DNA from: a virus
DNA length: 64,000 bases
Virus record (IMG/VR): IMGVR_UViG_3300043788_000134
Span: 5,882 to 69,881 of that record
Strand: one strand, 5' to 3'
Position 1 is the first letter of the stretch. Each line of letters opens with the position of its first letter. Below, one piece after another: positions 3,325-63,100 of this stretch. A program made the translations under genes and the position numbers. The notes beneath the pieces were generated by a model. That model was not told the DNA's origin. It ran no database searches and saw only the letters and a program-made list of their open reading frames with translations.

Positions 3325-3370
3325 GGGTCACGAGAGGGCCTTCGTGGAAGCAGCACCGGATTCGGTCAAC
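3325..3370 (+). repeat. PIR half-site, subtype B1, forward
   Basis: gggtcacgagagggccttcgtggaagcagcaccggattcggtcaac; preceded by partial duplicate ttggatcacg at 3311-3320. Confidence 0.9.
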
Positions 3371-3371
3371 G

Positions 3372-5171
3372 TCACGCCGCCACGCCAAACGTCGCGGTTT
3401 CCAGATCGCTCACGGCAAGCCCGAACGCCGCGAATCGATCGGCCCAGTACGGCGACGTGTGCAATCGCTCGCGCAATCGCGCGATAAGCTGCACCGGCAC
3501 TCTGCCGTGCAAGCGATATTCGAGGACGCCCAAGAAATAGAGCGCAAAACCGTTTTCTGGCGAGATCACTTCCGACAGCACCGTGAGATTTTGCATCTGT
3601 TGCTTGATCTTGACCGGCCGCGTTTCGTTCAAGAGCCGCCGAAAATTCAAATGATAGTTCATGTAGAACCAGATATCGGTTATCTGCTCGCCGGTCGGAA
3701 TATCGTCTGGCTTGATTTTGGCGAAGGCTTCGCGAAAGCCGAGATGCGCGAGTATCAGACCTTGTTCGATCTCGGTTTGCTTGCCGTAAGAGCCGCCGGC
3801 AAAGCGCAACTCCTTCGATCCCACGTCCTGGATAAGACCTTGCGCCACCATCGCATCATAAATAGGCGTATTCGGGAGCGGTTGCAGAGGGCTGATTCGA
3901 TACCAATCACAGTCCATCTCGCGCGCCACATTGATCGTGTCGTGGACCATGCCGAGGGTTTCATTCGGAAAGCCCACCATCAAAAGGACGGACGTGTGAA
4001 TTTGCTCATGCTCGCGGAAAATTTGCGCCGCCTCGATGAAGTTTTCGAGCGTGCCTGGTTTTTTGACTTGGCGCAAGATCGTCCGGTTGCCTGATTCCAT
4101 GCCGATATTAACCGCGATACAGCCAGACTCGGCCATCGCGGCAACAAGAGCCGGCGTACACGACGACGCGATGATGCCGTTGGTGGCGTCCCAGGTGACA
4201 TCGATCTTTCTGCGGACAATCTCATTGAACATTTGCGTGGCGCGGTGCTCGTCCTTCAAAAGATCGTCATCGAGCCACATGAAGTGGCCGACGCCGTAAT
4301 CGTTCACCAGCATTTCGATTTCATCGACGACGTTCGTATAGTCGCGTTGGCGCACGCCCTTGCCGTTGAAATTCCGCACCGAGCAGAACGTGCACTGCGC
4401 GCGGCATCCGCGATTGGACAACACCGTGGCAAAAACCGTATCCTTGGGCTTGAAGCAATAAAACGCGCCGATCGTGCCGTGCTTGGAATGTTCGGGAATG
4501 TCGAGGAGGTCGAATGCCGGGATGATCGAGATATCTTCGGGCACGCAGTCGGCCGTTAGATGGATGCGTTCGGGTTTGTTGATGATGAGTTGAGCAAGGT
4601 CGGTCACGGGACGCAGCCGATTCACGGCTTGGACAAAGCGCGGCAACGACTCGTCGGCTTCGCGAAGGAACGCGGCGGAGACACAGGGAATGTCATCAAG
4701 CACACGCTCCACGTCGTTCGTCACATGCACGCCACCGATGGCGACAGGAGCGTAAGCCGCGGCGAAGGTGCACACGTCCTTGAGCGACTGATGACTCATG
4801 GTGAACATGCAGCCGACGCCGATCAGGTCCGGTGCGGTGTCATAGATGGCCTTGAACAAAGCCCACTTCCACGTCGCCGTGTGGTCAAAGGCCCCGCTTC
4901 CCCGCGCCGCCTTGAGCACGATATGATTCAGGTTCAGAATCTGCATATCCACGTCGATGGCGCGAAGCTGTTGCGCCAGCAACGCCAGTCCGTAGGGAGG
5001 GTAATTGGTGTAGCGACCGCGCTTGGCGATTTCAGGACGGAACAGGTTGGCATCCGCGTCGGGGGGGTTGACCAGAAGCACGCGGCGGATTTGGCGGGCG
5101 GGAAATAGCGCAGAGAGAGCCGCGTCCACAGCGGTTGGGTCATGAGAGCGGAGTGGCGGGGATAGGGTCAT
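3372..5171 (-). CDS. B12-binding-domain radical SAM enzyme
   Basis: 599 aa; N-terminal RVLLVNPP...GGVH cobalamin-binding-like region then CxxxCxxC motif CRAQCTFC; first codons lie inside PIR 5137-5182. Confidence 0.85.
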   Translation of the reverse strand: MTLSPPLRSHDPTAVDAALSALFPARQIRRVLLVNPPDADANLFRPEIAKRGRYTNYPPYGLALLAQQLRAIDVDMQILNLNHIVLKAARGSGAFDHTATWKWALFKAIYDTAPDLIGVGCMFTMSHQSLKDVCTFAAAYAPVAIGGVHVTNDVERVLDDIPCVSAAFLREADESLPRFVQAVNRLRPVTDLAQLIINKPERIHLTADCVPEDISIIPAFDLLDIPEHSKHGTIGAFYCFKPKDTVFATVLSNRGCRAQCTFCSVRNFNGKGVRQRDYTNVVDEIEMLVNDYGVGHFMWLDDDLLKDEHRATQMFNEIVRRKIDVTWDATNGIIASSCTPALVAAMAESGCIAVNIGMESGNRTILRQVKKPGTLENFIEAAQIFREHEQIHTSVLLMVGFPNETLGMVHDTINVAREMDCDWYRISPLQPLPNTPIYDAMVAQGLIQDVGSKELRFAGGSYGKQTEIEQGLILAHLGFREAFAKIKPDDIPTGEQITDIWFYMNYHLNFRRLLNETRPVKIKQQMQNLTVLSEVISPENGFALYFLGVLEYRLHGRVPVQLIARLRERLHTSPYWADRFAAFGLAVSDLETATFGVAA

Positions 5172-5182
5172 CGGTCACCGTT
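5137..5182 (+). repeat. PIR half-site, subtype B2, forward
   Basis: gggtcatgagagcggagtggcggggatagggtcatcggtcaccgtt. Confidence 0.9.
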
Positions 5183-5191
5183 CTATTGAGC

Positions 5192-5404
5192 TCAAACTAC
5201 GCCGATGTAAGCGGCCTTAAACCGTTGATAACTATCCTCCAGTACAGCCGCATCCAGATGATCAAAGGCGTTGAACCGTAAATGGGGATATTTCTCTAGG
5301 GTTGCCTCATGGCCACATTTGCCATCCTCTGGAACGCCGCGACGCAGTTCTTCGAGGCAAAAGGGGCACACGTCGTTGAACGGATCGAACGCGGTCATTG
5401 CCAT
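5192..5404 (-). CDS. small Cys/His-containing protein (70 aa)
   Basis: ATG 5404 with GGGGGAGG 8 nt upstream; MAMTAFDPFNDVCPFCLEEL...; only gene between PIR 5137 and PIR 5439. Confidence 0.45.
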   Translation of the reverse strand: MAMTAFDPFNDVCPFCLEELRRGVPEDGKCGHEATLEKYPHLRFNAFDHLDAAVLEDSYQRFKAAYIGVV

Positions 5405-5438
5405 TACTGTGCCTCCCCCTGATTTTACCATGGTCAGC

Positions 5439-5473
5439 GTTGACCGCACCGGAATCCCTGCGGTTCCGTGACC
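5439..5473 (-). repeat. PIR half-site, subtype A, reverse
   Basis: gttgaccgcaccggaatccctgcggttccgtgacc. Confidence 0.9.
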
Positions 5474-5478
5474 AAATC

Positions 5479-6399
5479 TTAATTCACCGGGAGACGTTCC
5501 GCAACACGTCCGCCGAACGATTGCCGGAATCGCCACCGATCGATGCGTGCCACCTTGTAGGCAATAACATCAATCGACGGCGTGAATTTCGTCGCCATAC
5601 CTCCGGTCGGCTTCAACGACGCCCGCAACGGCCGAGGTTCGCTATAGACGATTTCGGAGAACGGCACCGGCTCAAACGCCATCCGGGCGCCCAACAGGCT
5701 TTGCTCTTTGACCATTTGCGCCAATTCCGCCCGCGACACCGCCGGTTGACTGACCAGATGATAAATCCGTCGCGTCACGGGCTTTGTCGCAATTTCCAAT
5801 AAGCCTCTCGCCGTATCGTTCACGTCCGATACATTGAAAATATTATCCACCGCCATGCGCGCGTTCGGTTTGAGCAGCGTTTCATAGCATTGCGCCACCG
5901 GGCAGTGCTGGCCTTGGACCCATCCCACGTTCCATCCCGTGCGCGCCACGACGCCGCGCGGCGTGCACAGCACATGACTTTCCACGGCAGCTTTCAATGC
6001 GCCGTAGACATTGAGCGGGCGTCGTGCGGTATCTTCGGAGCAATCCCCCGCTTTACCGTCAAACACCTGGTCGGTAGATAAAAACACCACCCGCGCGCCG
6101 GCGTCGTCCGCATCATCGACGAGGTTCTTGCTGGCGTGCAGATTCAAAAGCCACGCCGCTTCCTGATTCGCGTAAATCCACGCAGGAGCGATATAGCCCG
6201 CAAGCAGCACCACCACATCGTCAGCATTCAAGTCGGGAACCACGGTGCGCAGCGACGCGGTTCGCATGTCGAACGGCACGAGGCCGTAGCGCACACGGCT
6301 TAAAGCGGTGCCAATGGCTGGTACACGCGCGGTGCGGGCCTCTTGGTGAAGCACACTGCCGATGACGCCGGAGGCACCGACGATGATGATTCGGGTCAT
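5479..6399 (-). CDS. RmlD-like NAD(P)-dependent sugar reductase (dTDP-4-dehydrorhamnose reductase family)
   Basis: IIIVGASGVIGS Rossmann motif, LSTDQVFDG and YGALK motifs; ATG 6397-6399 lies inside PIR outer block (CTCTCATGACCC). Confidence 0.7.
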   Translation of the reverse strand: MTRIIIVGASGVIGSVLHQEARTARVPAIGTALSRVRYGLVPFDMRTASLRTVVPDLNADDVVVLLAGYIAPAWIYANQEAAWLLNLHASKNLVDDADDAGARVVFLSTDQVFDGKAGDCSEDTARRPLNVYGALKAAVESHVLCTPRGVVARTGWNVGWVQGQHCPVAQCYETLLKPNARMAVDNIFNVSDVNDTARGLLEIATKPVTRRIYHLVSQPAVSRAELAQMVKEQSLLGARMAFEPVPFSEIVYSEPRPLRASLKPTGGMATKFTPSIDVIAYKVARIDRWRFRQSFGGRVAERLPVN

Positions 6400-6439
6400 G
6401 AGAGCGGAGCGGCGAGTGAGAGGATTATCGGTCACCGTT
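6393..6439 (+). repeat. PIR half-site, subtype B2, forward
   Basis: gggtcatgagagcggagcggcgagtgagaggattatcggtcaccgtt. Confidence 0.9.
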
Positions 6440-6694: not shown

Positions 6695-6722
6695 AGCTTC
6701 CCTCCTATTACAAACAACCGCG

Positions 6723-6757
6723 GTTGACCGCACCGTAATCCCGGCCTCTCGTGATCC
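6723..6757 (-). repeat. PIR half-site, subtype A, reverse
   Basis: gttgaccgcaccgtaatcccggcctctcgtgatcc. Confidence 0.95.
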
Positions 6758-6762
6758 AAAGA

Positions 6763-8543: not shown

Positions 8544-8562
8544 TTTATGCTCGGTTTTGTTT

Positions 8563-8597
8563 GGGTCACGAGAGGCCGGGATTACGGTGCGGTCAAC
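8563..8597 (+). repeat. PIR half-site, subtype A, forward
   Basis: gggtcacgagaggccgggattacggtgcggtcaac; contains stop codon (TGA, 8593-8595 minus) of ORF 8593-9540. Confidence 0.95.
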
Positions 8598-9540
8598 CGG
8601 CGTAAGCGCGAGGAAACGAAACAATCGTATTCGACGGCGACAGCGCCTCGCGGAACGCGCTCGCTTGCGCCTTGTCCATCCCAAAATCGTCGAGCAGATG
8701 CGGAATCATGTCGATGGCGCGCTGCTTGATGCGCAGATAGCGCTCGTCTTTCGGATTAAGCCCGGACATCATGTCGAGTTGCCGCGACTGGGCCCGCACG
8801 GTGTCGTTGACCCACTTGGAACGGTATTCGATCAGCGGATGATGCCGCAGCAGAATGTCCTTATGCCATTGCGGCGTATTGAAGTCAGGATCATTGATGA
8901 TCTTGTGCGCTTCGGCGCGGCGCTTGAGATAAGCCGCATCGAACCACGTCGCCCACCAGCCCGGCTCGCGCATTTCCATGGTTTTGCCGGCACCGGATTG
9001 GTCTGTCCCCACATCGGCAAACGAAATACGCCCGATCATTCGCCCCACGTCGTCGGTCCAATGGTCGGCAAACCAATACGGGAAATATTCCGGCTGCAGC
9101 TTGTTGTCGTTTTTCTCCGCCCATTTTGCGGTATAGGCGATCACGCTCGGAAACGAAGCGTTTGCCATCCGGCCATAGACAATGCCGATGCCGTCAGGAA
9201 AACGTAACGCGGCCTCCAGCAGCAATTCGTCGGTATTCGGCGTGATATAAACGTCATCGTCGGACGCATTGAGGTAAAGATCGCCAGGCTCCGACAATCC
9301 GCGATTCCATTTTCCGGCTACGGTATCGTCGCGCTTTTTGACGTTGATCGTAATGCGCGGATCGAGCTTGCCTTCGTCGTATGCCGCGCCAAGCATCGCC
9401 ACCGTAGCGAAGTCGTCCGAATCACACTGCACGATGACCTTGGTATCCGCCCGCGAAAAGCACGCCATGTGGCGCGGCAGCGTCCCCATCAACTGTTGCG
9501 CACGATTGCGCGTCGCCACGCTTACAACAAGTCGCGCCAT
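8593..9540 (-). CDS. glycosyltransferase-like protein (GT2-like)
   Basis: 315 aa; N-terminal VVSVATRNRAQQL and acidic CDSDD / ASDDD motifs resemble GT2 enzymes; weak call. Confidence 0.45.
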   Translation of the reverse strand: MARLVVSVATRNRAQQLMGTLPRHMACFSRADTKVIVQCDSDDFATVAMLGAAYDEGKLDPRITINVKKRDDTVAGKWNRGLSEPGDLYLNASDDDVYITPNTDELLLEAALRFPDGIGIVYGRMANASFPSVIAYTAKWAEKNDNKLQPEYFPYWFADHWTDDVGRMIGRISFADVGTDQSGAGKTMEMREPGWWATWFDAAYLKRRAEAHKIINDPDFNTPQWHKDILLRHHPLIEYRSKWVNDTVRAQSRQLDMMSGLNPKDERYLRIKQRAIDMIPHLLDDFGMDKAQASAFREALSPSNTIVSFPRAYAG

Positions 9541-13492: not shown

Positions 13493-13503
13493 TTGGACTC
13501 ACT

Positions 13504-13538
13504 GGATCACGAGAGACAGGGATTACGGTGCGGTCACC
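13504..13538 (+). repeat. PIR half-site, subtype A, forward
   Basis: ggatcacgagagacagggattacggtgcggtcacc. Confidence 0.9.
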
Positions 13539-14847: not shown

Positions 14848-15093
14848 TCAGGTGACCGATTCCGGTCTCTCAACCGCCCAAAACTCGCGTGACACAAGAG
14901 GCACCGCGCCGGCCGCGTCCATCTCGGCAACAATCTCTTGGTGTGTCGCCTCGCGCCATTGAAGCGGTGGAAACGCTCGCAGACCGTTTGGGGTAAAGAA
15001 CGCCTTGCCGACCTTGCGGTATGGCACCCATTCATCGTGGATTTTGCCCATCGCATTACACTTGCGCAAGTAGTTCGATTGCTCCGGCGTCAC
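14848..15093 (-). CDS. hypothetical protein (81 aa)
   Basis: ATGA overlap with portal stop. Confidence 0.45.
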   Translation of the reverse strand: MTPEQSNYLRKCNAMGKIHDEWVPYRKVGKAFFTPNGLRAFPPLQWREATHQEIVAEMDAAGAVPLVSREFWAVERPESVT

Positions 15094-17333
15094 GAGCTAC
15101 CTCCATTTCCACCGCCCGAATCAGCCGTCGCGGGAGGCTGCAACGCTTGATGCACATTCAAGGCATGTTCCGCAAGGTCCATCTGGCGGTCATGCACGCC
15201 TTGCACAGCCTCCAAACCAGCGGTCTTTTGCGCGTTCGCGGCGTCCGCCTTGTGGATAACCATTTCCTTGGCAAGATTGACCGTAGCTATATTCTGTTCG
15301 GTGGCGAGTTCGGCCTGTTTGATTTGGTTTTCCTGCTGCGCATTTTGCGCATCTGCTTGCGCCTTTTGCGCGCCCGTCGTGGCCTGGGTCATCTTCGCCT
15401 CCGCGGCGATCAATTGCGGATTCGGCTGCGGCGCGGCGGCAGGCGGTGCCTGGATCAATCCCGCCGGGTCTTCGCGAATCACCGCCAAGATGCGCTGCAA
15501 GGTTTCGGTCGGATTCATGATCGGCGTGAATGCGGGAATAGCGATCAATTGCGCGAGCGCCACGCCTTTTGCCACACGATGAATGTGCGACGGCGTATTG
15601 GGATCGGAGCGCGGCACCAAGTTACAATCGTTTAGCGCCTGCAAGAACTTTTGCTCGTTCCAAAAATCCTTGCCGCAAATCTTATTGGACTTCCAGAAGT
15701 CCTCCGGGTTTTGTTTGAACAATTCGACAATCAATTCGATTTCCTCGGCCTGGGCCTGGTGCATGCCTTTGAACGCCGCCGACATGACCTTGGTTGCCTG
15801 CTCGATCTGCGCCATCATCGTGCCGACCGGGACGTTTTGAATGCCCTCCGCCGTCGGGGTATCGGCCACGCCGCCGACGGCTTGGGCTTGCGACGTAATC
15901 TTGTCGATCAGCGCAAGAAGGCCCGGCGTCACGTCCTTGTAGGGCAAGCCCTGAATCACTTGATTGATCGGCTGTCCATTCGTCTCGATCGGCATGAACG
16001 TGCCTGCGGCCAAGCGAAAGTCCGATGTGTTTTGTCGCCCTCCCAGTTTTGAAATCACCCCCGACGGAAAATTCGCATACATGCCGGCGTCAAGCGCCTC
16101 GCGCCACGCCGCGGTCATCGCCATTGACGAGTTACCCAGAATATTCAGCATCCCCGTGCCGTAGAATCCAGGTCCAGGCACATACGGATATTTGACGTAC
16201 ATCCGCTTGCGCTCGCACTCGTCGTCATCCTCTTTCCAGTCGCGGCGAATCGCAAGAATCTCTTTGGAATCCTTGTCCATCGTTACGATATAGGGCAGCG
16301 GAATACCTTCGTCCTTGAACTTGCCGGGCGCGTACTGACGCAGATCAAGCTCGCACTGCGTTTCCCACAAATTGTACGGCTGGTCTTCCGGCCGCCTCTG
16401 ATTCGTTTGCGTACCTTGCTGCTGTTCTATTTGCTCATTGACGGCATTAGGCGCCGCCGCCATCGGCTGCGGTAACGACACATCGCGATAGGCGCCGAGC
16501 AATTGCATGCGTTTCATGACCGAAGGACGCATCTGAATTTCGTGCGTGATGCGCGAGCACGAGCGCAAATCCTTGATGGTGTCAGAGACGATCAAATCCT
16601 TCGCATCGACGCTTTCCGAAACTGGCCGCCGGCGCATCGGGCAGCGGTAGACTTTCTTAAATCCCGATCCTCCAAAATAGGTACCCCACAACAGCATGTG
16701 CGACGTGTCGGGATAATATTCCGACGCCGTCGTCGTCAGATAATAATTCATGTCGCGCTCGAACGCTTCGGCCAGTTCATCTTCGCCCTGCGTATCGGCA
16801 CCGTCGTTGCCATCGTCGGCTATTTTAACTGGACCTTCGGACGGCAACAGTTCGGCTTGCGCGTTTGCCCATCCCTTCAAAACCGCTTCAAGCAACAGCG
16901 GATTGGTGACCGTCGAAAGTCCTTCGACTGCCGCAGACGTATCGGCCGCGTTCGCGCGCGGTTCCTTGATCTCCAGTCCGAGCAGTTCGATGCCGCGGGC
17001 ACGGATGGCAAGATAATTGGCGCGCGATTGATTGTCGGCATTGACCTGGTCCCAAAGTTCGACAGAAATTTTGCCGAGTTCAATGGCTGGTATTCGTTCG
17101 GCGAGATTTTCGTAAAATGGATCGTCGTCCGCGTCTGTTGCTTTGGGACGCCGCGCGTCCAACTGCACGATCACGCCACCATCGTCGGCCGGACTTGTGA
17201 CGGTGCCGGTCACGGGATCGACGCTCTCCACGTTGTCGTCATCGTCAATGACGACGGAAACGCCTGAGACTCCCGCGGCGTCAGCCATGGAAGTCACTTT
17301 CGGCATCACGAGAGGTTGTGCCGTTTGCAGCAC
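15090..17333 (-). CDS. portal protein
   Basis: 747 aa, follows terminase genes after three small ORFs, acidic N- and C-terminal regions; likely start ATG 17306 (inside PIR, CTCTCGTGATGCC) or 17288. Confidence 0.7.
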   Translation of the reverse strand: MLQTAQPLVMPKVTSMADAAGVSGVSVVIDDDDNVESVDPVTGTVTSPADDGGVIVQLDARRPKATDADDDPFYENLAERIPAIELGKISVELWDQVNADNQSRANYLAIRARGIELLGLEIKEPRANAADTSAAVEGLSTVTNPLLLEAVLKGWANAQAELLPSEGPVKIADDGNDGADTQGEDELAEAFERDMNYYLTTTASEYYPDTSHMLLWGTYFGGSGFKKVYRCPMRRRPVSESVDAKDLIVSDTIKDLRSCSRITHEIQMRPSVMKRMQLLGAYRDVSLPQPMAAAPNAVNEQIEQQQGTQTNQRRPEDQPYNLWETQCELDLRQYAPGKFKDEGIPLPYIVTMDKDSKEILAIRRDWKEDDDECERKRMYVKYPYVPGPGFYGTGMLNILGNSSMAMTAAWREALDAGMYANFPSGVISKLGGRQNTSDFRLAAGTFMPIETNGQPINQVIQGLPYKDVTPGLLALIDKITSQAQAVGGVADTPTAEGIQNVPVGTMMAQIEQATKVMSAAFKGMHQAQAEEIELIVELFKQNPEDFWKSNKICGKDFWNEQKFLQALNDCNLVPRSDPNTPSHIHRVAKGVALAQLIAIPAFTPIMNPTETLQRILAVIREDPAGLIQAPPAAAPQPNPQLIAAEAKMTQATTGAQKAQADAQNAQQENQIKQAELATEQNIATVNLAKEMVIHKADAANAQKTAGLEAVQGVHDRQMDLAEHALNVHQALQPPATADSGGGNGGSS

Positions 17334-17350
17334 CGGATTCGGTCACCGTT
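17303..17350 (+). repeat. PIR half-site, subtype B1, forward
   Basis: gcatcacgagaggttgtgccgtttgcagcaccggattcggtcaccgtt. Confidence 0.9.
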
Positions 17351-17362
17351 ACTCCGCGCGAC

Positions 17363-17398
17363 GTTGACCGTACCGTAATCGCTCCGCTCTCGTGATCC
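17363..17398 (-). repeat. PIR half-site, subtype A, reverse
   Basis: gttgaccgtaccgtaatcgctccgctctcgtgatcc; 12 nt from PIR 17303 (empty pair). Confidence 0.9.
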
Positions 17399-17402
17399 AA
17401 AG

Positions 17403-21888: not shown

Positions 21889-21893
21889 TGTGT

Positions 21894-21929
21894 GGGTCAC
21901 GAGAGGGAAGCGATTACGGTGCGGTCAAC
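21894..21929 (+). repeat. PIR half-site, subtype A, forward
   Basis: gggtcacgagagggaagcgattacggtgcggtcaac. Confidence 0.9.
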
Positions 21930-21950
21930 CTTTGTTTGTTTGGTCGCCAT

Positions 21951-22518: not shown

Positions 22519-22821
22519 TTATGGCGTGAGTAGATTGCAGCGTTGGGTCATGCGAGCGGAGTGTGTGACGAGAGAATCATCGGTCACCGTCTCGCTTTGC
22601 ACAGTCGCGGTTGACCGCACCGTACCCACATATCCCTCGTGACCCAACTCTTTCTTCACGGCTTGGTCTAACTCCTTCCGCCACCGCATCACCCGCTCTC
22701 CCGCCGCAACGATAGTAGCATGGCGCCCTTCGTAGCTCTTGGCGAATGCAACAAACAAATAATCAAACGACGCCTTTTCAAGCTCACGCTCGGCCTCTTG
22801 ACGCCACATCGCTGTCTCCAC
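22519..22821 (-). CDS. hypothetical protein whose last ~44 codons read through a PIR pair
   Basis: 100-aa ORF; C-terminal ...GHEGYVGTVRSTATVQSETVTDDSLVTHSARMTQ... is encoded by PIR 22610 and 22545. Confidence 0.35.
   Translation of the reverse strand: METAMWRQEAERELEKASFDYLFVAFAKSYEGRHATIVAAGERVMRWRKELDQAVKKELGHEGYVGTVRSTATVQSETVTDDSLVTHSARMTQRCNLLTP
22545..22590 (+). repeat. PIR half-site, subtype B2, forward
   Basis: gggtcatgcgagcggagtgtgtgacgagagaatcatcggtcaccgt. Confidence 0.85.
22610..22645 (-). repeat. PIR half-site, subtype A, reverse
   Basis: gttgaccgcaccgtacccacatatccctcgtgaccc; 19 nt from PIR 22545 (empty pair). Confidence 0.85.
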
Positions 22822-24013
22822 GGTTACGCACCAAAAAATCGGGAATGTCGATGACTTCGGAAAGGGACGAACCCGCGCCGTCGGGGTGAGTGGCTGGGGG
22901 AGGCTGAGACGGCGCGGGTTCTACCGCCACGGGGCTCTCATGATCCGCGGCGGGTTGGTGATTCTTCTTTTGAACGGGATGTTGCGTGAAACAATGGGTG
23001 TCATCGCCATAAGTAAGTCGCTCGCGCTGGCCGGGCGGAATCCAAAACGGCGGCTGCGGCGCGCGATCTTTCAACCAAACAAGCCAGCAGTAAGCGGTAG
23101 CCGTCGTTCCGTTTGGATTCCATTGGCCTTTGCAGAGATTGACGCGTTCAACAAAAAAAGCGCAAAGCGTCGGTGGCGTATCGCGAAATATCTGCTCGTA
23201 ACGCTCGATTCCTTCGACCGCCCATTGCGATCTGAAAAACATCGCCACGTTGTCGGCCACGGTTAATGCACGATCGACGAATTGCAATGCTTTTTCGCGG
23301 AACGGAGGATTTGTTATGACCCACTCTGTCGTTTTTCCGAGCTCAATTGGTTCGAGAAAATCTTTTACGGCCCCATACCCCCATTCGTATTTATCCGTCG
23401 CCGTGACGCGCTGGGAATATTCGCACAAAACCTCTGCCATGTGCCCGAATCCGCACGCCGGCTCCCACACGAGGCGCAAAGGCAATTCGACTCCCAGATG
23501 CGGCAGCACGCATTCCATAAGCGCCCTGGTAGCCCACGGTGGAGTCGGGAAAAGATCGGCCGAATCGCCAGGCTCCAGACGGCTACCCATGATCGATCGT
23601 GCCCCCCCGACTTCGGTCGCATGATCGGCGGCGATATGCTCGCATTCAGCCGTTATCATAAGCTCAAAATCCCGTTCGGGAATTTCGGCGCGTTTTTTTG
23701 CCTTGGCCGCCAAAGTTTTATCAACGCCAGCTTCCTCCAGCGTCGGCCGCGAAAAATCCTCACCATCGGATTTTTCTTTTTGACGCCCCTGCCGGAACAA
23801 GCCGGCTTTTTGCGCCTCTTGGATCACTTCGCCCAAGCGCCGTTCGGCGCGCATTTGAAACGCGGTGGCTTGGGCGAGCAAGACGTGGTCCTTGATCTGC
23901 TTCGCGCGCAGCTTGACAAGCTCAAATTCGTCCAAAAGCGGCAAAACCTCATCGATCTGTGTGGCTTCCGCGAGCGCGGCACAAGCGCGATCATATTGGG
24001 CAAGCGTCGTCAC
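22784..24013 (-). CDS. SAM-dependent DNA methyltransferase (N6-adenine type)
   Basis: EPACGFGH (motif I-like) and ITNPPF (motif IV, NPPF); GTGA coupling to upstream stop at 24010-24013 (ORF track start 24028). Confidence 0.7.
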   Translation of the reverse strand: MTTLAQYDRACAALAEATQIDEVLPLLDEFELVKLRAKQIKDHVLLAQATAFQMRAERRLGEVIQEAQKAGLFRQGRQKEKSDGEDFSRPTLEEAGVDKTLAAKAKKRAEIPERDFELMITAECEHIAADHATEVGGARSIMGSRLEPGDSADLFPTPPWATRALMECVLPHLGVELPLRLVWEPACGFGHMAEVLCEYSQRVTATDKYEWGYGAVKDFLEPIELGKTTEWVITNPPFREKALQFVDRALTVADNVAMFFRSQWAVEGIERYEQIFRDTPPTLCAFFVERVNLCKGQWNPNGTTATAYCWLVWLKDRAPQPPFWIPPGQRERLTYGDDTHCFTQHPVQKKNHQPAADHESPVAVEPAPSQPPPATHPDGAGSSLSEVIDIPDFLVRNRGDSDVASRGRA

Positions 24014-24387: not shown

Positions 24388-24626
24388 GATTGCCCCTCCA
24401 AAAGCTTGCCGAGGGCGGACTGGGGCAGCGGCGGGTCGCCGAATAGCACCATGGCGCGGGTGAGAGGAACCGATTCGCGGCGCGCACGGTCGGCTAGAAC
24501 TTCGGGAGGAGGTGGTTCTTGGGGGGTGGAACGGAGGAAATCGGGGGGGATATAGCGGTGTTGGGCGTTGACGCGGGCGCGATGTAACCGGCGCCGTTCG
24601 GCGGCTATGGCGGGAGGAAGCGGCAT
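24384..24626 (-). CDS. Pro-rich hypothetical protein (80 aa)
   Basis: ATG 24624-24626 sits in PIR outer block (CTCTCGTGATGCC); ATGA overlap downstream. Confidence 0.35.
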   Translation of the reverse strand: MPLPPAIAAERRRLHRARVNAQHRYIPPDFLRSTPQEPPPPEVLADRARRESVPLTRAMVLFGDPPLPQSALGKLLEGQS

Positions 24627-24670
24627 CACGAGAGGCCCCACCGGCTGAGAGACCGGAATCGGTCACCGTT
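24623..24670 (+). repeat. PIR half-site, subtype B1, forward
   Basis: gcatcacgagaggccccaccggctgagagaccggaatcggtcaccgtt. Confidence 0.9.
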
Positions 24671-25031: not shown

Positions 25032-25391
25032 ATGGACCCCACCGAACACGATCCGGCACGCGAAGCTGCCGACGATTTCAAGGAACTCGCCCCGATGGGC
25101 AATTCTCCTGTCGCGCCGGCCCATGTTGTGGCCTCTATCGCCCTCAATATGGCGATGAAATACCACGACATGAGTATCGTGAAAGACGGCGCGCTTTACC
25201 AGCAATACAAGCTTGAAGGCAGGAATATCCGCACAATCGGTCTCGATGATATTTTTGCCGACGCCGTGAGGATCGAAGCATGGCTTCTCGGTTCGTCTGA
25301 TCGTATCGCTAAACTCATTGTCGATGCCATCAACGACGGTCCCGAGGGCGACGAGTCATCCGGCGATTCGACTCCATCGGCCGAAGGTTGA
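25032..25391 (+). CDS. hypothetical early protein (119 aa)
   Basis: GGGAG RBS at 25021; stop TGA 25389-25391 lies inside PIR 25387 (GTTGACC). Confidence 0.5.
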   Translation: MDPTEHDPAREAADDFKELAPMGNSPVAPAHVVASIALNMAMKYHDMSIVKDGALYQQYKLEGRNIRTIGLDDIFADAVRIEAWLLGSSDRIAKLIVDAINDGPEGDESSGDSTPSAEG

Positions 25392-25422
25392 CCGCACCGT
25401 AATCACTCCGCCATCGTGACCC
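25387..25422 (-). repeat. PIR half-site, subtype A, reverse
   Basis: gttgaccgcaccgtaatcactccgccatcgtgaccc followed by AAAGGGAGCGCACC-ATG. Confidence 0.9.
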
Positions 25423-25436
25423 AAAGGGAGCGCACC

Positions 25437-25865: not shown

Positions 25866-25870
25866 CCTTT

Positions 25871-25906
25871 GTGTCACGAAGCCGCAGGGATTCCGGTGCG
25901 GTCAAC
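25871..25906 (+). repeat. PIR half-site, subtype A, forward
   Basis: gtgtcacgaagccgcagggattccggtgcggtcaac. Confidence 0.9.
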
Positions 25907-25933
25907 CGAGGTTGTTTGTAATAGGAGCCGAGA

Positions 25934-26163: not shown

Positions 26164-26355
26164 ATGAAACAACTTCATCCATTTTTATGCGGCATGATCG
26201 TTTTTTTGTTACTGTTATATTTAGGGTGGATGCTTGCCAAGCTTCCTTCCCCGGCAGAAGATTTGCTTCATGCGCTTGTGTACGCCACGGCGGCTTGTGC
26301 GGTTGTTGCGTTAATTATTTTTTTGTCACTTTATACCTTTCGGAAAACAAAATAG
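26164..26355 (+). CDS. small membrane protein (63 aa)
   Basis: MKQLHPFLCGMIVFLLLLYLGW... two hydrophobic segments; AT-richer than flanks. Confidence 0.4.
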   Translation: MKQLHPFLCGMIVFLLLLYLGWMLAKLPSPAEDLLHALVYATAACAVVALIIFLSLYTFRKTK

Positions 26356-26398
26356 GGTGACCGATGACCCTCTCCCCCTCACTCCCCTCTCGTGATCC
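26356..26398 (-). repeat. PIR half-site, subtype B2, reverse
   Basis: ggtgaccgatgaccctctccccctcactcccctctcgtgatcc. Confidence 0.9.
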
Positions 26399-26472
26399 AA
26401 CGGACTTCTCTACCTCCTACGAACTTCTATGGGCCTGTTTCCTATCGGGTCAAATCAACAGCCGCCAATGGA

Positions 26473-26532: not shown

Positions 26533-27333
26533 ATGCTTGAACAGAAATATACGCGCGCCGAGCAGGAAATGGCAGAACGCGACGCCTACCCCGACCGCTT
26601 TGCTACTGCAGGCCACAACAATCCGCCTAACGCCATCGACTCCGCCCAGGAAGCGATGGCTGAGCTTGCCAAGTTTGCCGAGGACAATCCCGCCATTCAG
26701 TCTTTCGCCGAGGCCAAGCTTTACGCCGGCATGATCGAGCGCACGCGCGTTGCCATGCAGGATTTGGAGAACGAGCGCGAGCCGCAAGTGCGCCCGCTCA
26801 ATGCGGCGCTTAAGGCCATCAACGACCGCTATCGCTTGGTGCGCCAGCCCCTGGAGAAGCTTTACGATCTGGTCAAGGCGCGTCTGACCAAATACAACAA
26901 CGCGGTGGAAGCGGCGCGTTTGAAGGAAGCGCAGCGGTTGCGCGAGGAAGCCGAAGCGGCCGAGCGCGCAGCCCGCAAAGCCGAAGCGCGTGAGAAAGAT
27001 GCTATGGCGTGTGCCGACGTGGGCGAATGTACCGATGTTGGCGGCGCCATCGCGCAAGCCGACGTGGCATTCAAGGGCTATCAGAAAGCCGACCGCGCCG
27101 CGGCAACCGCCGAGCGCAACGTGCCGGTGCGGATTGCGAGCGTCATGGGCGGCAAAAGCCTCTCCATGCGAACGACCGAAGTCTTTATCGTGGAGGATGC
27201 CTGTGCCGCCATTACCGCAATGGGACTATCCGAAGCTGCGCGCCAACAGCTTATTAAGGACGCAAAGCGATTCCGCGAAGCTACTGGCGAACTGCCGGAA
27301 GGTATCACGTCGCGCTTTGAGCGGAGTTTTTAG
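26533..27333 (+). CDS. hypothetical coiled-coil protein (266 aa)
   Basis: ATG 26533 with AGGAAGG upstream; Ala/Glu/Arg-rich central helix. Confidence 0.5.
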   Translation: MLEQKYTRAEQEMAERDAYPDRFATAGHNNPPNAIDSAQEAMAELAKFAEDNPAIQSFAEAKLYAGMIERTRVAMQDLENEREPQVRPLNAALKAINDRYRLVRQPLEKLYDLVKARLTKYNNAVEAARLKEAQRLREEAEAAERAARKAEAREKDAMACADVGECTDVGGAIAQADVAFKGYQKADRAAATAERNVPVRIASVMGGKSLSMRTTEVFIVEDACAAITAMGLSEAARQQLIKDAKRFREATGELPEGITSRFERSF

Positions 27334-27369
27334 GGGTCACGGAACCGCAGGGATTACGGTGCGGTCAAC
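27334..27369 (+). repeat. PIR half-site, subtype A, forward
   Basis: gggtcacggaaccgcagggattacggtgcggtcaac. Confidence 0.9.
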
Positions 27370-27405
27370 CACGTCGGAACGAGCAAACATCGGAAGTGGA
27401 CGTAA

Positions 27406-28685: not shown

Positions 28686-28705
28686 TCCTTTTATTGCAGC
28701 GAAAC

Positions 28706-28750
28706 GTTGACCGAATCCGGTAACGCCAACGGCACAACCTATCGTGATCC
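28706..28750 (-). repeat. PIR half-site, subtype B1, reverse
   Basis: gttgaccgaatccggtaacgccaacggcacaacctatcgtgatcc, then partial duplicate aatgatccaaaggg. Confidence 0.9.
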
Positions 28751-28778
28751 AGAGAATGATCCAAAGGGAGCACCAACC

Positions 28779-29274: not shown

Positions 29275-29290
29275 AGCTTAGGAAAGCGAT

Positions 29291-29326
29291 GGGTCACGAG
29301 AGGGGAGGGATTACGGTGCGGTCAAC
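29291..29326 (+). repeat. PIR half-site, subtype A, forward
   Basis: gggtcacgagaggggagggattacggtgcggtcaac. Confidence 0.95.
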
Positions 29327-29360
29327 GGATCATCTTAAAGACCGCTGAATGAGGACAACA

Positions 29361-31941: not shown

Positions 31942-32011
31942 GACTATCCCCTACCCTCGATTGTGGGGATACCCTATCAACCCTTATAAATGCTGTCAAG
32001 GGATAAATACG

Positions 32012-43385: not shown

Positions 43386-43395
43386 GGCGGTATTT

Positions 43396-43430
43396 GGGTC
43401 ACGAGAGGCCGGGATTACGGTGCGGTCAAC
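43396..43430 (+). repeat. PIR half-site, subtype A, forward
   Basis: gggtcacgagaggccgggattacggtgcggtcaac (identical to 8563-8597). Confidence 0.95.
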
Positions 43431-43435
43431 GCGCG

Positions 43436-47871: not shown

Positions 47872-47913
47872 GGGTCATGGGGTGACTCTTTGGGGAGTGA
47901 TTCGCAAGCCTTT

Positions 47914-47961
47914 GGATCACGAGAGGGGAGAACGTGTGGATAGTCCGGTTCGGTCACCGTT
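47914..47961 (+). repeat. PIR half-site, B1-like, forward
   Basis: ggatcacgagaggggagaacgtgtggatagtccggttcggtcaccgtt. Confidence 0.85.
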
Positions 47962-50012: not shown

Positions 50013-51560
50013 TTAGCCTTTCCTAAAACGACCATTCGGGTGACCGTGTTGCGCCCCACTATCCACAGGCCTCTCATGACCCACATCTTCCTTGCCCTTT
50101 CGCCCCGATTCAGGCTTAATCCCTCCCCCATGCGCAAAGCCCTGCTTTTGGCGTACTGCACCGCCTGTATTTTGCTGTTGTTCTACCCCTGGAACGCTGT
50201 TTTGCTGGGCCTGTGCTTCTACCGCAGCCGGGCCTTGGACGAATGGGCGTACCGCCTGTGCCAAGGGCGGAAGCGCCAAGCGCCCTCCGCTCAAGTCGGG
50301 CCGCGCCGTCTGGGCCATAGCAGCGGCTTGCCGCTGCTGTCCCAGGGGCGACCGCATACGGATCGATTCACCGAGATCGGCGGCTTTTCCCATCGCCATG
50401 GAATTCGACATCTTGCGGAGCGCCCAACCGGCGATCGGAGCTAAGGCAGTCACCCCATGAGTCGCTAGTGCTCCCATGCCGTACATCGCCGTCAGCAATC
50501 CGCCGCCGCCGCCCAAGATATTTCCCGCGTGGCGCATGGTATTTTCAAGCGGCGTTCCCTCCGCGATTTGCCTAACCTGATCCATTTCATCGGGTGTTAG
50601 GCCCCGTCCGAGCTTCGGATTGCTCGCAATATCGACCATGCGCTGGCGAATCGTATTGGCGATATTCATCCCGGAGTTTGCCGCCTTGGCGCGCAAATAC
50701 GCCTTGGTCATCCGCTGATCCAAATCCGCCGCCCGCGCCATGGCCGCATAGTTGCCATTGGCTTGCTGTAGGATTTGCGCCGCAGCTTGCGGATTACCTT
50801 GAATCACGTCCGCAGCGGGCAGATTGGATAGAAACTCGTCAAGGTGTTGTTGCGCCGACTTAGCCGCCAGCCGTTCAGTCGGATCAATTGAGCCGGCCGC
50901 ATTTCCCAACGTGCGGCGCAGACTACGCAGATTATCCACCGTCAAGAACGGCTGCGGACCTCCATCATCGCCTTGGGGCACTTTTTCAAGCTTGCCGAGG
51001 ATGCCAAAGGTTTTCGGCGCGAGATTTTCGTCGATCCCAGCTTCATTCAAATTGGTTTGGATTTCTTGACTGAGGCGCGGCCCCGCCGCCGCGTGAATCT
51101 GCACGTTTGCGACCGTCGGCGATTCGTAGCCGGCAACGGCCGCACCCTTTAATTCCGGGATAGTTGGTGCTGTTGCTTCTCCGACGGAACGCGGCGTCAA
51201 AGCAACACCGGCAACACCTTCGCCCGCCCGGGCGGCCACTGACGAAGGACTGGTAAAGCCCGCTAGGCTGCTCGCCCTGTCAGCTATTTCTGCATTCGTT
51301 GCTTGCAGCCGAGCCTCATCTTCGTCCGACCACATGCCGGGCTTGCTTGGCACAACATCGGTCGCGCCCGACGCGACATCACCCGGCAATGTTGCTCCTT
51401 GATAGGCACTTTTGACCAATTGCGCCGGCCACGTCTGCATGAGCTTCTGGCCGACCGACGGTGCCTGTGCCGCGGGTTCCGAAGGAGAATCGCTCGGCAA
51501 CGTAAAAGCCTGCGGTGCCGCGGGCGCGTCGCTCGGCAATACAAAATCGTCGGGCATCAC
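50013..51560 (-). CDS. virion internal / tail-associated protein (515 aa)
   Basis: overlaps stop of 1156-aa gene; C-terminal GFAHGGGIKP motif; last ~20 codons read through PIR 50039. Confidence 0.4.
   Translation of the reverse strand: MMPDDFVLPSDAPAAPQAFTLPSDSPSEPAAQAPSVGQKLMQTWPAQLVKSAYQGATLPGDVASGATDVVPSKPGMWSDEDEARLQATNAEIADRASSLAGFTSPSSVAARAGEGVAGVALTPRSVGEATAPTIPELKGAAVAGYESPTVANVQIHAAAGPRLSQEIQTNLNEAGIDENLAPKTFGILGKLEKVPQGDDGGPQPFLTVDNLRSLRRTLGNAAGSIDPTERLAAKSAQQHLDEFLSNLPAADVIQGNPQAAAQILQQANGNYAAMARAADLDQRMTKAYLRAKAANSGMNIANTIRQRMVDIASNPKLGRGLTPDEMDQVRQIAEGTPLENTMRHAGNILGGGGGLLTAMYGMGALATHGVTALAPIAGWALRKMSNSMAMGKAADLGESIRMRSPLGQQRQAAAMAQTARPDLSGGRLALPPLAQAVRPFVQGPAAVEAQAQQNSVPGVEQQQNTGGAVRQKQGFAHGGGIKPESGRKGKEDVGHERPVDSGAQHGHPNGRFRKG
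50039..50082 (-). repeat. PIR half-site, B-like, reverse
   Basis: ggtgaccgtgttgcgccccactatccacaggcctctcatgaccc. Confidence 0.8.
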
Positions 51561-56394: not shown

Positions 56395-56430
56395 GGTGAC
56401 CGCACCGTTATCGCTCCGCGTTCGTGATCC
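56395..56430 (-). repeat. PIR half-site, subtype A, reverse
   Basis: ggtgaccgcaccgttatcgctccgcgttcgtgatcc; abuts ATG 56392. Confidence 0.85.
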
Positions 56431-56437
56431 AAAGCAA

Positions 56438-56842: not shown

Positions 56843-56856
56843 GGCTCAGGTTTTAT

Positions 56857-56891
56857 GGGTTACGAGAGACAGGGATTATGGTGCGGTCAAC
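56857..56891 (+). repeat. PIR half-site, subtype A, forward
   Basis: gggttacgagagacagggattatggtgcggtcaac. Confidence 0.9.
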
Positions 56892-56937
56892 GTTGACCGA
56901 ATCCGGCGCAATTCCAACGAAAGCCCTCTCGTGATCC
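56892..56937 (-). repeat. PIR half-site, subtype B1, reverse
   Basis: gttgaccgaatccggcgcaattccaacgaaagccctctcgtgatcc; directly abuts PIR 56857. Confidence 0.9.
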
Positions 56938-56941
56938 AAAG

Positions 56942-61474: not shown

Positions 61475-62991
61475 TAGTTTATCTGAAACACTTTCATGGT
61501 TGATCCGGGAAGCACGACGGTGGTCGCAGTCGTGGCGGCGGCTTGCGCAATCTGCGGGTAGAACACGGTTGCCGTTCCACTCGATAGCGTGCCCACAACA
61601 CGAATCGTCGGCGTTGTCGCACTCGTCGAAGTTGCCACAGCAACCCCAATTGTGGTCGCACGCCCCTGCGCTACCAACGAACCGCCTGAATAGCTTTGCG
61701 CGTCATAAATGACGGAGGCGGGCGTCGTATTCGTTTGGAACGCAAGTTGCGTGCCACCCGTCGCACCGGCGGTGCAATACAAGATCGCCTCGAAAAAATA
61801 ATTGCCATTGCTCGCAACCGCGACAGACAACGCCGGAACCTCTGCCAGAGTCGTCGTGGATACGACATTGAATGCCGTGGTCACCCGCGCAAAGCCGACA
61901 TCGCTCTTGATAAAGCCGTTGACATCGAGGGTGGCGGAGGGAGTGGCGGTGCCGATGCCAAGCACACTGACCACAGCCGTTCCTGCGACGCTGACTAATG
62001 CACTTCCGACAACCGTTGTGCCAACACCAAGCGCAGTAAGCGACGCGGTTCCGCTAACATAAAGCACCGTTGACGCAGGCGGGGATGACGTGCCGATGCC
62101 GACGTTCCCAGTACCCGTTATGAAAACCCGTAGTGTGTTGCCGGTACCAAACTCAATACCATTTCCAGCTTCATCGTTAAGGCCGACAGCATAGGGCTGC
62201 CCGTTATTCATTAGAAAGGCATCGGCACCTTCAACACCTAAGTAGCCTATCCCTGTCGTGTTTCTCAAATCCAGGTAAGCCACACTAGTCGCATTAACCG
62301 ACGAGAAATAGGCTATCGCAAAATCTTCACTTAGCTGTTTAACGGCCAGATTTGTTACGGACTCAGGTGCAATTCCTATTCCAACCGGACCATTAAATTG
62401 TGTCGTCGAATTAAAGATATGTTGCCCAGTCCACGTCGGTGTAATGGCCTGCGACAGCGGCGGCGCGGCATCGCTCCGCATCCCTGTGGTTGCCGCACCA
62501 TTGACCGCAACAAGCCCGACGGTGCCCGTCGGATTAGCCAACCCCGCAAACGTCGCTATCGCCGTATTGAGCGCAATCGTGATTGTGGTCGCGTTGCCGG
62601 TCGTGAACAGCCCGTTGCCGACGCCGACGAAGTTTGTAATGCTCTGCCAGCTTGAAATATAATTCGAGCCGCTGGTCTTGGCGAGGATTTGCCCAGTGCC
62701 GCCGCCCGCCGGAAGATTGCCCGCCGCCACGCCGAGGTTGCCGACGAGCGTTGCCATCGGCAGGCCCGAGGACGCCTGCAGGAACGTCACCATGTCCGAT
62801 GCGGCAGGCACCGCGTTCGGCAGCACGCCCGGCACCTTGCCGACCATGTTGGTGACAAGATCGTAATAGGTCGCCGCCGCCGTTGCGGTTGCCGACGTGA
62901 CCAACAAAAAGATTTCACTGCCGGTATATTGCAGCGCGCCCGGCTGGTAAGGCGGGAACGAGGGGAATGTGCCGGGAGTGGGGGTCGCCAT
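61474..62991 (-). CDS. tail fibre-like protein (505 aa)
   Basis: GGGTGQILAKTSGSNYISSW motif common in fibre proteins; Ala/Thr/Gly-rich. Confidence 0.55.
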   Translation of the reverse strand: MATPTPGTFPSFPPYQPGALQYTGSEIFLLVTSATATAAATYYDLVTNMVGKVPGVLPNAVPAASDMVTFLQASSGLPMATLVGNLGVAAGNLPAGGGTGQILAKTSGSNYISSWQSITNFVGVGNGLFTTGNATTITIALNTAIATFAGLANPTGTVGLVAVNGAATTGMRSDAAPPLSQAITPTWTGQHIFNSTTQFNGPVGIGIAPESVTNLAVKQLSEDFAIAYFSSVNATSVAYLDLRNTTGIGYLGVEGADAFLMNNGQPYAVGLNDEAGNGIEFGTGNTLRVFITGTGNVGIGTSSPPASTVLYVSGTASLTALGVGTTVVGSALVSVAGTAVVSVLGIGTATPSATLDVNGFIKSDVGFARVTTAFNVVSTTTLAEVPALSVAVASNGNYFFEAILYCTAGATGGTQLAFQTNTTPASVIYDAQSYSGGSLVAQGRATTIGVAVATSTSATTPTIRVVGTLSSGTATVFYPQIAQAAATTATTVVLPGSTMKVFQIN

Positions 62992-62993
62992 TT

Positions 62994-63029
62994 ATGTCAC
63001 GATAACCTTGTGATTACGGTGCGGTCATC
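62994..63029 (+). repeat. PIR half-site, subtype A, forward (diverged outer block)
   Basis: atgtcacgataaccttgtgattacggtgcggtcatc. Confidence 0.7.
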
Positions 63030-63056
63030 GTCCTTCCTTCATTCAAAAAGAAAGAA

Positions 63057-63100
63057 CGGTGACCGACGATTCTCTCCGCACACGCTCCGCTCACATGATA
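63057..63100 (-). repeat. PIR half-site, subtype B2, reverse (diverged outer block)
   Basis: cggtgaccgacgattctctccgcacacgctccgctcacatgata. Confidence 0.7.

Follow-up and report, generated by a model that had tools for sequence, protein, structure and literature searches.

The stretch of viral DNA considered here, 64,000 nucleotides long (positions 5,882 to 69,881 of the IMG/VR virus record IMGVR_UViG_3300043788_000134; in the following called the window), carries 30 copies and one partial copy of a phage intergenic repeat (PIR), a family which an original prediction, made from the letters of the window, had described as dispersed half-sites with conserved ends and variable cores. The reading favoured here, to which a probability of roughly 45% is assigned, is that PIRs are asymmetric two-box DNA sites recognised by a protein, and that inward-facing pairs of them bound small exchangeable accessory modules.

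Repeat family and two-box layout

Enrichment of the repeat in the window was apparent from simple patterns. For the outer block GGGTCAYGAGAG with at most one mismatch, 19 matches stand against an expectation of 0.34; for GAGAG-N12-30-GGTCAMC, the two-box pattern in its exact form, there are 17 where 0.15 would be expected. With a profile built from 22 seed copies, 29 were recovered at E<0.1, their positions practically coinciding with those in the original prediction, which had counted at least 29. The thirtieth copy is a PIR interrupted by an insertion sequence (IS) and consists of the pieces 29969-29979 and 32012-32058, and at 22921-22946 the outer box is present and the inner box absent, so this member is doubtful.

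Each PIR, generally 36 or 47 bp long, has an outer box of 15 bp (TTKGRKTCAYGAGAG) and an inner box of 14-18 bp that ends with CGGTCAMC, and the three subtypes that had been proposed proved to be real in the profile search and the alignment: A with 36-39 bp (ATTACGGTGCGGTCAAC), B1 (CCGGAYTCGGTCAMCGT) and B2 (TCATCGGTCACCGT). The cores said to recur at distant loci were likewise recovered in all three sets, namely AGGCCGG at 6722, 8560 and 43393, AGACAGG at 13503 and 56855, and CCGCAGG at 5438, 25868 and 27332. The short direct repeat thought to bound each half-site turned out to be a GGTCAC/GGTCAMC motif within both boxes and not a target-site duplication. As predicted, copies occur in both orientations and are placed between open reading frames (ORFs), typically 0-7 bp past the upstream stop codon, and at least two of them supply the stop codon of the upstream ORF via the TGA of GTTGACC; the distance from repeat to next start codon was checked for a fixed value, and no sharp rule emerged. 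A density of about one copy per 2 kb had been claimed; the repeats are unevenly distributed, the region of 32.1-43.4 kb being devoid of any copy (Poisson P about 0.005).

The anatomy of the site was studied in 144 non-redundant copies from the window and related contigs. Measured between the outer anchor TCAYGAGAG and the inner anchor CGGTCA, the spacing falls into two sharply separated classes, 24-25 bp (38 copies) and 34-35 bp (93 copies), with only a handful of values elsewhere; the two classes differ by 10 bp and hence by one turn of B-DNA. In the long class the spacer holds 0.1-0.7 bits over about 16 positions at a mean pairwise identity of 34%, and as many as 79 different 10-mers were counted in 99 copies, yet the length is held at 33-36; the free stretch of the short class comprises 5-6 bp. 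That spacers of one class are unrelated in sequence speaks for their length being constrained, and conserved boxes kept at two alternative spacings, one helical turn different, with a free stretch between them would be the expected signature of a protein or protein pair contacting both boxes on double-stranded DNA.

Inward-facing pairs and the ORFs they enclose

In the pooled genomes neighbouring PIRs alternate in orientation more often than they follow each other in tandem (74 versus 36, p=4e-4). Inward-facing neighbours, the inner boxes of which face each other, are separated by a median gap of 510 bp (17 of 43 within 300 bp), as compared with 2234 bp for outward-facing and 2728 bp for tandem neighbours (Mann-Whitney p=1.4e-4), and the same was obtained without the window. 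The term half-site in the original prediction was therefore a fair one, inward-facing pairs being commoner and closer than chance. Twelve such pairs are present in the window, four of them tight and empty (86-109 bp), the others enclosing 0.25-2.1 kb. In the part of the window covered by relatives (8-30 kb) a homologue in these relatives was found for one of 11 ORFs inside pairs as against 17 of 24 outside (Fisher p=9e-4). The backbone is accordingly found between outer boxes, and the genes enclosed by inner boxes are the optional ones. As to the composition of the pairs, 11 of the 12 in the window join one A end with one B end; over all genomes A-B was counted 20 times, B-B 17 times and A-A once, without significant departure from random pairing at this crude subtype level (p=0.2), and a strict rule of different subtypes for partners was rejected on that account. 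If {A or B1b} is paired with {other B}, 30 of 38 pairs conform; this post hoc grouping, defined after the data were seen, is a lead only.

Relatives were compared as fragments rather than whole contigs, the best relatives by large terminase (TerL) being 65-76% identical and those sharing the structural module too diverged for an empty-site comparison at base level. A synteny map of eight genomes displayed the same junctions without a repeat, with a solo repeat in either orientation, or with an inward-facing pair plus 119-510 bp of cargo; at the junction 27330/28752, for instance, the relative L008 possesses one PIR only. Base-level comparison revealed cargo and one PIR gained or lost beside a retained PIR upstream of TerS, and likewise between L008 and L005, while another indel abuts a PIR inner box directly and is flanked by the 11-bp repeat GTGCGGTYACC. 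The pair upstream of the portal gene has its A and B ends in opposite order in L009 as compared with the window. At one junction L009 and L010 differ by the replacement of an A-type copy by B1b, within sequence that is homologous on either side and with breakpoints inside the conserved boxes, from which it can be concluded that the repeats exchange sequence with each other. No target-site duplication was found at any pair; around the four tight pairs and the unit 47911/50083 the two flanking sequences were read and differ.

Two side observations concern the reading frames at such junctions. Reverse-oriented B1b-type PIRs are read through by small cargo ORFs in L008 (about 17090-17290) and at the portal-upstream junction of L009 and L010, the read-through using the sole stop-free frame and leading to tails such as VTESGGKEQTNSRD. 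The portal ATG of several relatives lies just 2-5 nt past the PIR outer box, too close for a Shine-Dalgarno sequence to fit in between.

Source phage and distribution of the family

TerL is encoded on the minus strand at 18138-19925 and the portal protein at 15090-17333; an ejection protein, virion proteins, a Mu-gpT-like capsid protein, a small terminase, an endolysin, an exonuclease, a tyrosine recombinase and a HTH_3 protein are also encoded in the window. A search of GenBank phages at the DNA level with the window gave no close match, and the top TerL match among them reached 40% identity. TerL relatives at 50-76% identity came from soil and other environmental metagenomes, on contigs of 60-70 kb.

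The PIR family was found in at least 25 other soil-phage contigs. Among the TerL relatives it is present in L005-L010, L023 and L113 (58-69% identity). No PIR was detected in relatives with an identity of 62% or less, L023 excepted, in the short 73%-identity contig L004, in 35 loci with the structural module of the window, or in a related prophage in an alphaproteobacterial metagenome-assembled genome (MAG), and the more distant relatives checked for a substitute dispersed repeat showed none. A pattern scan of IMG/VR retrieved B-type copies in 55 stretches of about 28 contigs, many of these stretches having no protein in common with the window. Well-formed copies occur in L204, the TerL of which is 22% identical to that of the window, and hence the family crosses phage lineages.

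A scan of 185,579 GTDB species genomes with the subtype A pattern only gave 0 matches, a composite repeat query found no match in plasmids and one chance match of 31 nt only in GenBank phages, and a literature search with motif strings led to unrelated primer sequences only. Within the reach of these scans a generic host repeat, which the original prediction had named as the contrary case, is not indicated. Its further claim that the repeats were copied or spread rather than duplicated locally is borne out by identical PIR 39-mers at non-orthologous loci, by the same subfamilies at different junctions (that of the 56395 copy was also found after the TerL stop codon in relatives) and by the copies in L204.

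Folding and transcription signals

When 26 single PIRs were folded on both strands, they performed no better than shuffles (z mostly -1.6 to +2.7, one -2.7), by which an RNA or DNA hairpin in single PIRs is ruled out. Tight inverted pairs do fold (z -1.4 to -4.3), because any inverted repeat would fold. Sigma-70-like promoters and intrinsic terminators are not enriched in the window, and none coincides with a PIR. The hexamer TTGACC, contained in the reverse complement of the inner box, was considered as part of a promoter and discarded, as no usable -10 hexamer was seen by eye and the spacing varies by subtype. An Rfam scan of the window at gathering threshold returned the tRNA at 42001-42073 only, and PIRs match no known RNA family. 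With 13 forward and 17 reverse copies (binomial p=0.58) PIR orientation is independent of transcription, which excludes a stoperator-like logic. The suggestion in the original prediction that PIRs mark RNA processing sites or transcript ends accordingly fails for single copies.

IS1595-like elements and other candidate partners

Two DDE transposases of the IS1595 family, with 30% mutual identity and intact catalytic residues, are encoded in the window. One belongs to a complete IS at 29979-32011 with the transposase gene at 31045-31941 (minus strand), a passenger ORF of 347 amino acids (aa) at 30051-31094 and terminal inverted repeats of 38-50 nt, which are unrelated to PIRs. Its direct repeats CGGTGACC(G) of 8-9 bp, at 29971-29979 and 32012-32020, are exactly the inner box of a B2-type PIR, and if the flanks of the IS are rejoined, a full PIR copy with B-class spacing (33, hand-counted) is restored. 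The second transposase gene (48493-49389, minus strand, DDE triad intact) is located inside a 2.17-kb unit bounded by an inward-facing PIR pair, and no terminal repeats of its own were found. Its orthologue in L217 (4755-5639, 54% identity) occupies a different repeat-associated junction, between homologues of 55595 and 56942, from which it follows that this gene moves. IS1595-like elements thus seem to land in or beside PIRs. Among 80 loci around phage IS1595-like genes, PIRs were present only at two copies of the second-transposase orthologue (L245, L246), and these PIR-free loci, together with the unrelated IS ends, argue that PIRs are not the ends of this IS family. Terminal repeats or miniature inverted-repeat transposable elements (MITEs) of IS1595 type were rejected as an identity of the PIRs on these two grounds and for want of a target-site duplication.

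Some further motifs were noticed around the second transposase. Both PIRs flanking it share the spacer motif TGTGGATAG (47937-47946, 50056-50065), which presumably resembles a DnaA box, and the similar GTGATAGTCCGG stands at 48075-48086 just inside the unit. In L217 a 39-nt inverted repeat (3754-3792/4659-4697, 82% complementary), unrelated to PIRs, bounds an 866-bp segment of small ORFs beside the transposase orthologue.

The HTH_3 protein was rejected as a partner, as no homologue was found in other PIR-bearing loci. The comparison of 84 window proteins with Pfam gave no Y1 (REP-associated tyrosine) transposase domain, and scans of the conserved neighbours with NCBIfam and PHROGs gave an exonuclease, phrog_10477 (26392-27333), and a weak tyrosine-recombinase match (36332-37282) only, with no DNA-binding assignment.

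Interpretation and alternative explanations

If PIRs are sites of module exchange, a recombinase- or transposase-like protein, host- or phage-derived, would bind both boxes on a fixed helix face and promote exchange from repeat to repeat between co-infecting genomes, whereby modules would be inserted, replaced, inverted or lost at PIR junctions without target-site duplication, following a module logic that would match that of the dif modules of Acinetobacter plasmids. In favour of this reading are the two fixed spacer lengths with free sequence, the lack of fold, promoter and terminator in single copies, the close inward-facing pairs with their poorly conserved contents, the changing states of the same junctions, the A-to-B1b replacement, the flipped portal-upstream pair, the copies in L204 and the IS inserted exactly in an inner box. 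Whether this amounts to a previously undescribed site-specific module-exchange system among co-infecting soil phages, with PIRs as its recombination sites, is a more tentative proposal and on present evidence a doubtful one. The same doubt attaches to the idea that such a system may be the phage counterpart of plasmid dif modules, with a recombinase possibly encoded by the host and a new two-box site whose two spacer lengths are one helical turn apart, through which unrelated phages would trade small accessory genes at fixed junctions. The original prediction was partly supported overall; it had overlooked the 10-bp quantised spacer, the architecture of pair plus cargo and the two IS1595-like elements.

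A number of observations weigh against protein-recognised sites of module exchange. GGTCA is repeated in the two boxes directly rather than in inverted form, a spacer of 16 bp is atypical of the core sites of tyrosine or serine recombinases, and ancestry in two founder elements could account for part of the constancy in spacer length. Alternating orientation is a statistical tendency (67%) and no strict rule, solo copies make up about half of the total, and the gene calls in the window stem from a simple ORF and GC3-based heuristic. The 13503 site, between homologues of 14031 and 13274, is kept in 8/8 genomes with its core included, and orthologous PIRs are conserved to 86% as against 88% for the flanking coding DNA, hence with no excess over their flanks; the universal presence of this site and the flank-level conservation fit a local function, e.g., regulation, at least as well as mobility. 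Furthermore, no PIR-binding protein or recombinase was found among the candidates examined. Most PIR-bearing contigs were not recovered in the search for IS1595-like transposases, and the tyrosine recombinase of the window, to which the original prediction had pointed, gained no support as a partner, its relatives at 27 other phage loci being without PIRs; that pattern search missed a known 55% homologue in a PIR-bearing contig and is therefore weak evidence either way.

The main rival is a dispersed regulator-binding site, in which case PIRs would be operator- or stoperator-like, a protein seated at gene boundaries would insulate, silence or block accessory genes, and the link to cargo would be secondary. 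Such a role would be in keeping with the helically phased two-box layout, with the conservation of the 13503 site and of orthologous PIRs in general, which equals that of coding flanks, with the pair 24623/25425 that brackets the HTH_3 gene and its divergent neighbour, and with the existence of monomeric two-domain repressors that read asymmetric sites across a phage genome (PMC9283540). However, stoperators work one way only (PMC9283540) and PIR orientation ignores transcription, the HTH_3 protein lacks homologues in other PIR-bearing loci, PIR positions turn over quickly among relatives, identical copies reside at non-orthologous loci and even the unrelated phage L204 possesses the family, and the tight empty pairs are without obvious regulatory target; all in all a regulator is regarded as rather unlikely.

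Three other explanations are less likely than this rival. PIRs, with their 36-50 bp, may act passively as crossover patches for recombination by phage exonuclease and annealing protein, no dedicated protein being involved, as is the case for PeSLs, intergenic repeats of T4-like phages (PMC2839356, PMC4122927). The exonuclease gene phrog_10477, the coincidence of indel and replacement boundaries with PIRs and the 11-bp microhomology GTGCGGTYACC at one indel would agree with this, but the quantised, sequence-free spacer, the conserved boxes next to a variable middle and the excess of close inward-facing pairs are left unexplained, and PIRs have neither the promoter nor the stem-loop of PeSLs, so that passive homology is judged improbable. 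Still less probable is an origin as non-autonomous transposons, or as solo ends of such elements, that would be moved by the IS1595-family DDE transposase of the unit 47911-50083. The tight pairs of 86-109 bp resemble MITEs, the gene with its intact triad does lie within an inward-facing pair, and its orthologue in L217 has a different PIR-associated junction. Against this, the IS1595 family makes 8-bp target-site duplications, of which no pair has any, and the other IS1595-family element does have its 8-9-bp direct repeat together with terminal repeats unrelated to PIRs; in addition, only L245 and L246 of the 80 IS1595-like loci carry a PIR, the transposase search missed most PIR-bearing contigs, and the polymorphisms consist of one repeat plus cargo, not of a whole pair. 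Least credible is a role at the RNA level, by which paired copies would form transcript hairpins as RNase III/RNase E processing sites, stabilisers or terminators: PIRs stand between genes in long operons and tight pairs fold, yet this fold is automatic for an inverted repeat, single copies are unstructured on either strand, about half lack a partner, the members of many pairs lie over 500 nt from each other, the spacers of pair partners differ by 10 nt, a length quantised by one DNA turn is meaningless in RNA, and there is neither a terminator signal nor an Rfam match.

Comparison with known repeat systems

By analogy, the closest working counterpart of exchangeable modules between PIRs would be the dif-module system of Acinetobacter plasmids, although membership fails on the site itself. 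Dif modules show alternating pdif sites, accessory genes between inverse sites, empty modules, and replacement or inversion without target duplication (PMC13141974, PMC10132070), and some IS elements target pdif sites (PMC10132070). PIRs likewise are asymmetric two-box sites with a variable spacer, neighbouring copies alternate and accessory modules lie between inversely oriented sites, an arrangement that is statistical in PIRs and obligatory in dif; tight empty pairs occur, junction modules are replaced and a pair is flipped without target-site duplication, and an IS element is inserted in the inner box of a site. The pdif site, in contrast, has 28 bp (an 11-bp XerC arm, a 6-bp spacer and an 11-bp XerD arm) with partly palindromic arms, whereas PIRs measure 36-50 bp, their boxes (15 and 14-18 bp) share a direct GGTCA, their spacers take up about 6 or 16 bp, and they reside on a phage genome instead of plasmids.

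The PeSLs of T4-type phages are intergenic promoter and stem-loop repeats which border variable ORFs at the boundaries of indels and replacements (PMC2839356, PMC4122927). PIRs are found at equivalent boundaries between related phages; unlike PeSLs, which are composite and oriented with transcription, they lack promoter, terminator and fold, occur in both orientations and have a phased two-box layout, and PeSLs may therefore be said to share their evolutionary role, not their anatomy. Stoperators of Cluster A mycobacteriophages are 13-mers oriented with transcription, inactive when reversed and read by a protein with two DNA-binding domains (PMC9283540). As with PIRs, more than 20 asymmetric sites are dispersed in short intergenic gaps across a temperate phage genome, but PIRs are longer, occur in both orientations, form inward-facing pairs and undergo fast turnover.

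With MITEs the paired PIRs have in common that terminal inverted repeats enclose little or no sequence and that the elements are small, numerous, intergenic and divided into subfamilies, and they differ in the lack of a target-site duplication and of a matching autonomous element. Several sequence types in alternating orientation are also known from BIMEs; REP/BIME units, however, are imperfect palindromes with a stem-loop, are associated with RAYT and belong to bacterial chromosomes, whereas single PIRs are not palindromic, no Y1/HUH transposase domain was seen among the 84 window proteins, and PIRs occur in phages, the GTDB genomes being free of the subtype A pattern. Integron attC sites, finally, act as single-strand hairpins with R''/R' and L''/L' in one orientation; PIRs are unfolded, their boxes are direct and both orientations are used.

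Coordinates and further features of the window

The copies and the interrupting IS are compiled in Table 1.

Table 1. PIR copies of the window with the inserted IS; positions are those of the window.
Position	Strand	Feature	Basis
3322..3372	+	B1, no partner detected; abuts stop codon of radical SAM gene 3372-5171	nhmmer E=1.4e-9
5135..5182	+	B2, left of inward-facing pair 5135/5476	profile search
5438..5476	-	A variant, outer box TTTGGTCACGGAA, core CCGCAGG; right of pair 5135/5476	profile search
6391..6439	+	B2, left of pair 6391/6760 around 80-aa DUF7736 ORF	profile search
6722..6760	-	A, core GCCGGG; right of pair 6391/6760	profile search
8560..8598	+	A, core GCCGGG, solo; TGA of GTTGACC is stop of gene 8593-9540	profile search
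13503..13538	+	A, core ACAGGG; positional orthologue in 8/8 genomes compared	profile search, synteny
14851..14897	-	B1, partner of 13503; three ORFs enclosed	profile search
17303..17349	+	B1, left half of tight empty pair just upstream of portal gene	profile search
17361..17401	-	A, core CGGAGCG; right half of portal-upstream tight pair	profile search
21893..21932	+	A, solo	profile search
22543..22590	+	B2, left half of tight empty pair	profile search
22609..22647	-	A, right half of tight pair with 22543	profile search
22921..22946	-	Partial PIR, outer box only, doubtful	profile search
24623..24670	+	B1, left end of pair around HTH_3 gene and divergent neighbour	profile search
25385..25425	-	A, right end of HTH_3 pair; TGA stop for ORF 25032-25391	profile search
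25868..25907	+	A variant, core CCGCAGG; left of pair around two small ORFs	profile search
26354..26400	-	B2, right end of pair with 25868	profile search
27330..27370	+	A variant, core CCGCAGG; left of pair around ORFs 27406-28685	profile search
28704..28752	-	B1, right of pair with 27330; positional orthologue of L008 single PIR	profile search, synteny
29290..29327	+	A, left of pair around ORFs 29349-29959	profile search
29969..29979	-	Inner-box fragment of split B2 copy; left copy of direct repeat CGGTGACC(G), 8-9 bp	
29979..32011	.	IS1595-family insertion sequence within PIR inner box; not a PIR member	
32012..32058	-	Remainder of split B2 copy: right CGGTGACC(G), spacer, outer box TGGGTCATCTGCG	
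43393..43431	+	A, core GCCGGG, solo; identical to 8560 copy	profile search
47911..47960	+	B class, spacer with TGTGGATAG; left end of 2.17-kb unit holding transposase gene 48493-49389	
50038..50083	-	B class, spacer with TGTGGATAG; right end of 2.17-kb unit	
56395..56433	-	A, CGGAGCGATAACGGTGCGGTCACC	profile search
56855..56893	+	A, core ACAGGG; left half of tight pair, inner boxes overlapping (GGTCAACGTTGACC)	profile search
56890..56940	-	B1, right half of tight pair; 2 bp from stop of gene 56942-58987	
62996..63030	+	A, degenerate outer box; left half of tight pair	profile search
63056..63104	-	B2, degenerate outer box; right half of tight pair	profile search

Auxiliary enzymes are encoded in a cluster at 3372-9540, situated between capsid and portal genes, and PIRs separate the members of this cluster from one another: a B12-binding radical SAM enzyme (3372-5171), a RmlD-like reductase or epimerase (5479-6435), a radical SAM/SPASM enzyme (6763-7953) and a weak GT2-like protein (8593-9540). 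The tRNA gene at 42001-42073 (plus strand, Rfam 68.6 bits) is situated inside the PIR-free region. The HTH_3 (Cro/CI-type) gene on the minus strand diverges from a plus-strand ORF of 119 aa (24685-25391), which gives this region a switch-like look.

Repeats of another kind were noticed in two other sequences. The PIR-free relative L015 has seven tandem units of about 73 bp (core TGCGGCCCGGCTCGCCGGG) at 1117-1614, and in L070, a prophage in an alphaproteobacterial MAG, near-identical direct repeats of 160 bp (6562-6722 and 12338-12499) are located 5.8 kb apart around the terminase region, which may be an artefact or an insertion.

Significance

It has long been asked by what means phages acquire and trade small accessory genes exactly at gene borders, and illegitimate recombination and chance homology are the usual answers. 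The PIR family, with about 150 non-redundant sites in at least 25 contigs of uncultured soil phages, is a sequence-defined candidate for a directed route of gene exchange. If a protein partner were found, PIRs could serve for predicting which junctions are hot and which cargo is optional in phage genomes from metagenomes; if they proved to be regulator targets instead, they would represent a second, structurally different case of genome-wide dispersed control sites in a temperate phage.

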